From IMG/VR virus record IMGVR_UViG_3300027917_000018, positions 138,976-202,975 of that record: a stretch of 64,000 nucleotides of DNA; one strand, 5' to 3'. Origin of the DNA: a virus. Taxonomy: Duplodnaviria > Caudoviricetes. Under the pieces are notes generated by a model. That model worked only from the letters and a program-made list of their open reading frames with translations, made no database searches and had not been told where the DNA came from. Each line of letters begins with the position of its first letter. The first letter of the stretch is position 1. Made by a program: the position numbers and the translations under genes. Positions 27,954-29,406 of the stretch are shown here, one piece after another.

Positions 27954-28406
27954 TTAAGAATTTTGTGAACCAACAACCGCCTGAGCCCGTTTGACATGCT
28001 GAGCCATTTCCCAGCTCGTGGCCTTGGCCCGTTGGCGGTCGTAAAGCATGTGCCGAGCCTTGTCCTGGAGCTGGAACAGCCAGTCCTTGTCCTGTTCGGC
28101 GCGGCCCAGGGCTTTCTGGACTGCGTCGGGGTAATCCCGCCTCAGCTCGTGGCAAAAGGCGTTGATGGCCTGTTTCTTGGAATCGGGCAGATTCCAGTGA
28201 AAGCCTGGACTGAGCCCGGCCTTGGCCTGGGCGCGATCCGCAATGCTTTGCTCGATGCGGCGGGCGAGCTTCTTATCCCGGATGCGCCGGGACAGCTCGG
28301 CGTACTCCTGCTTCCACTGGGCCGTCCATGCCAGGTAGGAGGTTTTGTCGGTGAAGGGCGGGCTTGGCCACGTCCCGAACTTTTCCATGCGTTCTTCGTG
28401 TGTCAT
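27954..28406 (-). CDS. helical hypothetical protein coupled to pth2
   Basis: SYLAWTAQWKQEYAELSRRIR; ATGA overlap with the pth2 stop. Confidence 0.65.
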   Translation of the reverse strand: MTHEERMEKFGTWPSPPFTDKTSYLAWTAQWKQEYAELSRRIRDKKLARRIEQSIADRAQAKAGLSPGFHWNLPDSKKQAINAFCHELRRDYPDAVQKALGRAEQDKDWLFQLQDKARHMLYDRQRAKATSWEMAQHVKRAQAVVGSQNS

Positions 28407-28840
28407 AGGAGGTTCAACCGCCGGGTGATGTGTTGGACTTCGTGCTTCAATGAAGGACCGAACCCAAGGGCGGTGATCGTGGGACGGCCTTCAAAGAAAT
28501 CGGGGCAGCCGCTGTCGACTACCAGGAAGTGGGGCACGCCCGCCTCGGCCAGGGCATCCCTGGTCTTCAGCAGGCGTTGCAGGGAGGCTCCCAGGCAGAC
28601 TTTGGTGCCGGGGAGGTCCTGGGCATAGGCCCTGGCCGCCTCCGAGCCCTCAGTGGCCAAATACGCGCCGAGGTAGGCATGTCCTGCCTGCGAGGCGATC
28701 TTGCCTGGAGCCATACCCAGGTCGGTACGCACGACGGCGTACAGACGGAGGACGGGGTCGGGGATTTACGTGAAGTCGGAAGACACGTCACCCGAGGGGA
28801 TCGGGGACGGGGAACGGTCGGATACTTACGTGAATTTCAC
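28403..28840 (-). CDS. pth2: peptidyl-tRNA hydrolase (Pth2 family); frame holds two in-frame TAA (28826-28828, 28766-28768)
   Basis: RLYAVVRTDLGMAPGKIASQAGHA, VVDSG, TITALGFGP, ITRRLNLL. Family call is strong; start (28840, 28786 or 28732) is uncertain. Confidence 0.85.
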
Positions 28841-28879
28841 TGGGATGATCCTTAAGCTATCAGGCTGTCTTTGTCAAGC

Positions 28880-28954
28880 TGGCGCTGCTGGCGGGAGTTG
28901 AACCCGCAACACGGGAGGTTAAAGCTCCCTGCTCTGCCGTTGAGCTACAGCAGC
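28880..28954 (-). tRNA. tRNA with UUA anticodon (ochre-suppressor type), CCA encoded
   Basis: 75 nt: acceptor GCTGCTG/CAGCAGC-G-CCA; D stem GCTC/GAGC; anticodon stem GGGAG/CTCCC with loop CT-TTA-AC; T stem GCGGG/CCCGC with loop TTCAACT. Confidence 0.92.
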
Positions 28955-29406
28955 TTCAAAATCCTGGTTGTGCTGAAACCGGTCATGAGCGGGATGAAGC
29001 GGATTTCGCCGCCATTCTTGAGGACCACGTCGCGCTCCCCTTTGTCCACCGTGTCGATGTTGTAGTCGTCGCCCTTGACCCAAATGGCCGGGCAAACCGT
29101 ATCCAGAAAGCGCGTGGCGCGTTTACCGCGAAAGACATACACCCAGTCGACGCATTCAAGTCCGGCCACCACGAAGGCGCGCAGAGCGGCTGGAAAAATC
29201 GGGCGGTCCGGCCCCTTGAGCATCCTGACCGACCGGTCGTCGTTGATACCGACCACCAGCTGCATCCCAAGTTTACGGGCCTCCTGAAGGAAGTGGACGT
29301 GGCCTGGGTGGAGGATGTCGAAGCAGCCGTTGGTGGCGACAGTTGCATGCCGGGCGCTATTGAGGCGCAGTTCCCGCACGTTCGTCAGCAGCTTTGGATT
29401 GTCCAT
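28945..29406 (-). CDS. cytidylyltransferase-family protein (HldE/RfaE domain II-like adenylyltransferase)
   Basis: TNGCFDILHPGH, GINDDRSV, KGPDRP, KGDDY, GFSTTRI. Confidence 0.9.
   Translation of the reverse strand: MDNPKLLTNVRELRLNSARHATVATNGCFDILHPGHVHFLQEARKLGMQLVVGINDDRSVRMLKGPDRPIFPAALRAFVVAGLECVDWVYVFRGKRATRFLDTVCPAIWVKGDDYNIDTVDKGERDVVLKNGGEIRFIPLMTGFSTTRILKLL

Follow-up and report, generated by a model that had tools for sequence, protein, structure and literature searches.

An ochre version of a phage cassette in which a start-less Pth2 gene is probably translated by suppressor tRNA read-through

Introduction

The bar minigenes of phage lambda are free-standing, very short start-to-stop reading frames that are toxic in hosts deficient in peptidyl-tRNA hydrolase (Pth), the host Pth being rap. 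In stop-codon-recoded phages, suppressor tRNAs accompany the reassignment of TAG to Gln (‘code 15’) or of TGA to Trp (‘code 4’), so that in-frame stops are translated in a standard-code host, and a regulatory role has been proposed there (Borges et al., bioRxiv 10.1101/2021.08.26.457843; Peters et al., PMC9523058); the recoded stops are TAG or TGA only, they are numerous and fall in many late genes, and a standard-code reading of such genomes gives a low coding density. The gene for release factor 2, prfB, is autoregulated by an early in-frame UGA, which ties production of this translation factor to termination efficiency; the product itself recognises the stop, and a +1 frameshift bypasses it (PMC12421855). 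In a synthetic feed-forward ‘leak dampener’, a stop-carrying gene needs a co-regulated suppressor tRNA, which makes a low-leak AND gate (PMC7969014). Finally, the jumbo phages XacN1 and Atu_ph07 use the standard code and carry CUA or UCA suppressor tRNAs as well as Pth2 genes (PMC5852040, PMC6102473); the XacN1 authors found no target for the suppressor tRNA (PMC5852040), and the Atu_ph07 paper reports a single suppressor tRNA, with anticodon UCA, whose specific target is not named (PMC6102473).

The locus described here lies in the last 64 kb, hereafter the window, of a single 202,975-bp viral contig from marine sediment (GC 0.60; completeness 89% by CheckV), and it resembles each of these systems in part. 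Unlike the recoded phages, the window phage uses the standard code and has a single client gene with a fixed N-terminal stop, TAA, beside the tRNA. Whereas prfB shifts frame, the stops here would be passed in the same frame by a dedicated tRNA and the product is a putative hydrolase that would not act on stop codons. With the lambda bar minigenes it shares a start-to-stop frame of few codons linked to Pth biology (M-K-F-T-stop, four sense codons, in the window and M-T-stop in most relatives), but the minigene is fused in frame to the putative hydrolase gene. The leak dampener is engineered, whereas the window cassette is natural and appears to share its logic. Our literature searches found no published description of a stop-gated Pth2. 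We consider it probable that the window locus is the ochre version of a phage cassette consisting of a nonsense-suppressor tRNA and a start-less Pth2 gene, in which Pth2 would be made through tRNA read-through.

Results

Architecture of the locus

On the minus strand, one frame runs from GTG 28840-28838 through a first TAA (28828-26), the segment VSDRSPSPIPSGDVSSDFT, a second TAA (28768-66) and IPDPVLRLYAVVRTDLGMAPGK to TGA 28405-03 (Table 1). Each TAA is part of a copy of the 9-mer TTCACGTAA, the two being 60 nt apart; the 203-kb genome has 4 such copies, every one on the minus strand, where base composition would predict ~0.7. No ATG, GTG or TTG is present between the second TAA and GTG 28732, and the two identical in-frame FT-TAA stops with no start before that GTG are thus as the initial annotation had described them.

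Table 1. Features of the suppressor tRNA/Pth2 locus, in window coordinates
Feature	Position	Strand	Basis or remark
Suppressor tRNA, anticodon UUA	28880..28954	-	ARAGORN; Rfam RF00005, 66 bits
Promoter-like stretch: TTGACA 28877-72, 17 nt, TAAGGA 28854-49, 8 nt, GTG	28849..28877	-	Direct reading and L067 alignment
Leader GTG AAA TTC ACG TAA (M-K-F-T-stop) with first gating stop	28826..28840	-	Direct reading
Inter-stop linker, 19 codons, VSDRSPSPIPSGDVSSDFT	28769..28825	-	10/19 identical to L067 linker
Second gating TAA	28766..28768	-	13 codons before anchor Arg of VVR.DL, the family's modal position
Pth2-family domain, 120 codons, no start codon of its own	28403..28765	-	PF01981; TGA overlaps ATG of next gene
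Gene X, conserved helical protein	27954..28406	-	ATGA overlap with Pth2 stop

The stretch that contains the locus is identical in two assemblies from different samples. A third study supplied a variant strain in which 7 substitutions and a 4-nt insertion are confined to the spacer between tRNA and leader, its tRNA and its GTG-AAA-TTC-ACG-TAA leader being unchanged. Both TAAs are therefore real and not assembly errors, a possibility that the initial annotation had listed among those that would refute it. Two nonsense codons near a 5′ end are also the usual sign of a decaying pseudogene; yet about 100 loci have the same arrangement and the domain is intact with family-invariant residues present, which, together with the agreement of the assemblies and the conserved leader of the variant strain, makes decay or sequencing error a very improbable source of the stops.

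The stop-to-stop frame matches Pfam PF01981 (E 8.8e-20, 71.5 bits against a cut-off of 23) over profile positions 2-115 of 115, with position 2 falling on residue 7, the R of RLY. Its profile matches in the PDB are Pth2 structures (2zv3, 1rlk, 1xty, 1q7s), and the AlphaFold2 model (pLDDT 94) has the Pth2 alpha/beta fold including the N-terminal core strand, beta1, formed by residues 6-13 (LRLYAVVR), with TM scores of 0.80-0.88 to archaeal Pth2 and human Bit1 (Foldseek). Across 68 aligned homologues, conservation reaches at least 90% at R7, L8, Y9 and A10. Profile position 7 aligns with residue 2 of M. jannaschii Pth2, so the phage protein takes up again after the stop at precisely the point where archaeal enzymes have their N terminus. 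Beyond the second TAA no canonical start occurs before GTG 28732, which is V12, and as judged from the frame the Pth2 domain has no means of initiating by itself. In the S. solfataricus protein (1xty), whose catalytic residues we take to be K18, D86 and T90, the counterparts of the invariant K22 and D84 are K18 and D86; the T90 column holds Pro in the window Pth2 and is variable across the family, so that hydrolase activity, as predicted from sequence, is likely but not assured.

These features bear on the alternative that Pth2 is made without read-through, from GTG 28732 or from a non-canonical codon (ATC 28765, CTG 28744), while the tRNA serves other purposes. Such a GTG does exist, in several relatives a conserved Val or Leu is encoded by GTG or TTG, and gene callers choose starts of this kind, Atu_ph07 and Sinorhizobium phage Phosso being annotated from internal ATGs. 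A start at V12, however, would remove 6/8 residues of the core strand beta1, the residues upstream of it are conserved as protein, about 20 of the related loci offer neither ATG nor GTG nor TTG in the interval from stop to domain, and the co-variation of stop and anticodon described below would be left unexplained. We accordingly give internal initiation a slim chance.

The promoter-like stretch corresponds by homology to a consensus promoter found in relatives ahead of the leader ATG; in L067, the locus with the closest relative of the window Pth2, it reads CTTGACA-17-TAGATT-7-ATG, the TTGACA being common to both. The AAGGA that the initial annotation had proposed as a Shine-Dalgarno sequence is present, but it occupies the site of the −10 hexamer in the relatives' TTGACA-17-TATAAT promoter, which has its +1 at or near the ATG, so that its role as Shine-Dalgarno or as part of a −10 element is ambiguous on sequence grounds. 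The −10 element of the window is poor and the leader start is GTG; a strict sigma-70 promoter scan of the window gave no call, and the z-score for leader RNA structure, −1.1, was not significant.

A canonical tRNA with an ochre anticodon

ARAGORN and Rfam (66 bits against a gathering score of 29) agree on the UUA-anticodon tRNA that the initial annotation had placed directly upstream, with its 3′ end 39 nt before GTG 28840. It is a canonical tRNA with a stop-complementary anticodon, an encoded CCA, discriminator G73 and a 7-bp acceptor stem, and its client gene, which is conserved, has the cognate stop in frame. A UUA anticodon reads UAA and, through U34 wobble, UAG. Its sequence is also unchanged in the variant strain, and its 76-77% identity to the CUA tRNAs of related cassettes puts it in the same tRNA family. 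In a nearest-neighbour comparison with phage tRNAs, the anticodon arm of the CUA family bore a resemblance to the tRNA-Trp of Atu_ph07. We rejected a reading as initiator tRNA, with the stop as start codon, as the tRNA has a G1-C72 pair and lacks the three anticodon-stem G-C pairs; the ‘tRNA-Pyl’ label that ARAGORN attaches to the CUA tRNAs is only a naming default, these being canonical cloverleafs. When IMG/VR was scanned by pattern for other family members with a UUA anticodon, only unrelated tRNAs came up, with no Pth2.

The tRNA is the sole one that ARAGORN calls in the 203-kb genome. A search of the genome found no class Ib or Ic aminoacyl-tRNA synthetase, so that charging would need a host enzyme. 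Upstream, a cytidylyltransferase-like gene (28945-29406, PF01467) ends in a TAG that coincides with tRNA positions 8-10 (window 28945-28954), and its ribosomes would thus terminate within the 5′ part of the tRNA.

Standard genetic code

Since the phage encodes a TAA-reading tRNA, TAA could be a sense codon throughout. To assess recoding we used a codon-usage score trained on long ORFs and applied at every stop codon, and genome-wide no TAA had coding signal on both sides. Genes end with TAA in ~43 cases, TAG in 50 and TGA in 96, at normal lengths, TAA thus closing about 23% and TAG 26% of phage genes. A scan of the genome for N-terminal gating (a start, a few codons, a stop, then a long start-less coding ORF) gave Pth2, present in one copy only, as the only true match; one other TAA-gated candidate, at genome 41018+, lies antisense to a gene on the minus strand and is only its shadow. 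Among the relatives, ORFs of at least 120 codons under the standard code cover 89-97% in 7/8 extra regions that were sampled (72% in L013). The idea that TAG is recoded in relatives was also discarded, treating TAG as sense adding 0-2 points of coverage in seven regions and 7 in L013. The many recoded in-frame stops and low standard-code density that mark recoded phages were found neither in this genome nor in the relatives, and a changed code has next to no probability when set against ~43 normal-length genes ending at TAA, gating confined to Pth2 and the absence of any TAA flanked by coding signal. No release factor gene was found in the phage genome.

At six gene junctions (window 2415, 43908 and 47740; genome 34522, 38058 and 130511) a TAG is followed after 1-2 codons by ATG or GTG in the same frame, and a UUA tRNA reading UAG by wobble could fuse the neighbouring products there at low frequency.

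A widespread cassette

A search of IMG/VR (twice), JGI metagenomes and GTDB genomes gave about 100 loci, of which the 84 that could be anchored by script on the VVR.DL motif formed the scored set. An in-frame stop lies 8-27 codons (mode 13) before the anchor Arg, with no ATG after it, in 82/84 loci, and the cognate suppressor tRNA stands just upstream on the same strand in 67/84; where the tRNA is missing, the upstream sequence is mostly absent as well, and a non-cognate suppressor tRNA was found upstream in 0/84 loci. The check that the initial annotation had suggested, for gating stops and a matching tRNA in homologues, was thus borne out, mostly with TAG and CUA in place of TAA and UUA. The arrangement is not unique to the window phage, whose locus is an ochre version of a widespread module.

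The leaders of relatives consist of ATG, 1-14 further codons and the cognate stop, which is preceded by Thr in 66/82 loci and followed by Val in 65/82. Past the stop, third codon positions vary among relatives while the amino acids are constant, which argues that the stretch is translated. In the commonest form, tRNA(CUA) is followed by ~45 nt containing TTGACA-17-TATAAT, then by 6-8 nt and ATG ACN TAG GTN, and from its sequence we read this form as a minigene of two codons, nearly leaderless, that is joined in frame to Pth2. Pth2 is ungated despite the presence of a suppressor tRNA in XacN1 and Xoo-sp13. The cassette is also present in four Verrucomicrobiota MAGs, a hint as to which hosts the clade infects.

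In six loci (L055, L057, L059, L110, L113 and L130), tRNA(CUA) lies in an open frame between the leader TAG and a second TAG. In L111, tRNA(CUA) likewise lies in an open frame after the leader TAG but the second TAG is missing, so that translation would have to cross the tRNA sequence. Read-through across the tRNA precursor in these seven loci could exert feedback on tRNA maturation.

Co-variation of stop and anticodon

Stop and anticodon occur in three matched pairs: TAG with CUA in nearly all loci, TGA with UCA in Atu_ph07, and TAA with UUA in the window. The homologue in Atu_ph07, an Agrobacterium phage, reads M-I-G-E-H-F-TGA, then 22 codons, then LRIYSIVR (L017:1420-1869, MF403008); its UCA tRNA, which we located at 430713-430784, is 230 kb from the Pth2 gene and unlinked to it. 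In Phosso, which is related to Atu_ph07, the leader is M-K-Y-TAG (L156:~530-969, PV764938). This predicts a CUA suppressor, and ARAGORN found two CUA tRNAs, one of them 4.6 kb upstream on the same strand; of the 55 tRNAs that it called, out of 59 Rfam matches, none has a UCA or UUA anticodon. In both phages the leader stop is a matching target for the suppressor, unlike the situation in XacN1, and it was missed because the deposited Pth2 CDSs (AUZ95035 in Atu_ph07, XYS97424 in Phosso) begin at an ATG inside the gene and lack the first strand. As we read the sequences, the true Pth2 frame opens upstream of the TGA in Atu_ph07 and of the TAG in Phosso.

L067 (GC 0.55), whose Pth2 is 62% identical to that of the window, carries tRNA(CUA) and the leader M-Q-D-T-TAG-VFDSVSSPIPTVELSSNFT-TAG-VPDPTLRLYAVVR, which aligns with M-K-F-T-TAA-VSDRSPSPIPSGDVSSDFT-TAA-IPDPVLRLYAVVR in the window. 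With two TAGs and CUA in one and two TAAs and UUA in the other, this lineage has undergone a joint change of the anticodon and both stops. Given what is established about ochre suppressors, CUA may plausibly have changed to UUA first and TAG to TAA afterwards, a step that could follow because UUA still reads UAG by wobble. The two linkers are identical at 10/19 residues and differ synonymously at GTA/GTT, GAC/GAT, ATC/ATA and TCC/TCA, and L067 has no start codon at the place where the initial annotation had seen a second sensor minigene, MSSDFT. That part of the proposal finds no support; the inter-stop stretch has the signature of, and in our reading is, a conserved, translated linker. By contrast, the view that full-length Pth2 is made only by read-through via the phage suppressor tRNA is strengthened by the kept position of the stop, the three-way co-variation, the Phosso prediction and the conservation of the upstream residues as protein; the phage thus very probably relies on a suppressor tRNA of its own to make Pth2.

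The same data can be asked whether the dependency is neutral, a suppressor tRNA having made a nonsense codon in the leader tolerable that was then inherited, with read-through playing no regulatory role. Phages do keep suppressor tRNAs whose other targets are unnamed, and one ancestral event could account for the shared stop position. A single point mutation would erase the stop, yet 82/84 lineages, at 40-60% protein identity, retain it; second stops have been gained repeatedly, and the stop type has switched with the anticodon in three lineages. A stop that is kept, duplicated and retuned with the anticodon makes a purely neutral dependency unlikely.

Gene X

A homologue of gene X follows Pth2 in 67/80 loci and is missing from cassettes of the Atu_ph07 type. 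Its AlphaFold2 model is all-helical (pLDDT 86), and two conserved helices, F..KE.YLAYR..WK..Y..LS..IR and AT.ML.ELK.AK.EAQRQYLA, flank a variable insert; no match was found in Pfam, PHROG or Atlas, nor any fold match in the PDB. The ATGA overlap suggests translational coupling from Pth2 to gene X.

Discussion

Taken together with the relatives, the window locus can be pictured as follows. Ribosomes would initiate at GTG 28840, make M-K-F-T, meet UAA and normally terminate. Only when host-charged tRNA(UUA) outcompetes release factors at both UAAs would translation go on across the 19 linker codons to give the complete Pth2 fold, and probably continue by ATGA coupling into gene X. With two UAAs to pass, Pth2 output would scale approximately as the squared ratio of suppressor to release-factor activity. 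Minigene work has established that termination on very short nascent chains is inefficient, and inefficient termination at the short leader may favour the tRNA there over ordinary gene ends. Roughly half of the phage genes end in TAA or TAG, so an efficient UUA suppressor would be costly and suppression should be weak or site-selective; weak suppression through two stops in turn implies a very low yield of Pth2.

As to purpose, we tentatively prefer, while regarding it as more probably wrong than right, that the hydrolase dose is slaved to the suppressor and clears peptidyl-tRNA by-products of read-through and drop-off only while the suppressor is at work. Nearly as likely, the cassette could act as a leak-proof, coherent feed-forward AND gate, with a potentially harmful enzyme made solely during active transcription of the cassette, or as a delay timer set by tRNA accumulation. 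The arrangement may also, as the initial annotation supposed, work as a switch or as a sensor of scarce release factors, and the short leader may promote drop-off. A fuller and doubtful, if possible, picture is that of a portable translational lock and sensor, in which an orthogonal tRNA serves Pth2 (with the coupled gene X) as its single client, a short and often leaderless leader favours the tRNA only there, the hydrolase dose reports and corrects termination failure or suppressor load, and the anticodon can be retuned from CUA to UUA to UCA with the lock following. If that were true, the cassette would be an evolvable tRNA-keyed gene switch.

The ‘orphan’ suppressor tRNAs of standard-code phages gain a concrete and conserved candidate target, and the cassette would represent gene-specific programmed read-through in bacteria and phages by way of a dedicated tRNA and not a code change. 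Its logic matches that of engineered amber-suppression gene switches, and the three-way co-variation of stop and anticodon offers a rare natural case of tRNA-codon co-evolution at one site. The corrected Pth2 annotation concerns cultured jumbo phages (AUZ95035, XYS97424), so that the idea is open to direct test in the laboratory.

Other tRNA genes occur around the related cassettes. Just downstream of the cassettes in L002, L057, L059 and others we observed tRNA-like genes with four-base (gcaa) or A34 (aat, ata) anticodons. In one subclade (L085, L095, L101, L103, L107, L116, L134, L137 and others), tRNA-Thr(CGU) and tRNA-His(GUG) lie within 1 kb of the cassette, tRNA-Thr(CGU) reading ACG, the codon that precedes the gating stop, and tRNA-Val genes accompany other cassette subclades. 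In L151 (Bosea massiliensis NZ_JBHSLU010000017, about 1319-1530), a Pth2 homologue that adjoins an odd tRNA called Ile(AAU) has no canonical start after three close in-frame TGAs, an arrangement that may be another kind of gating.
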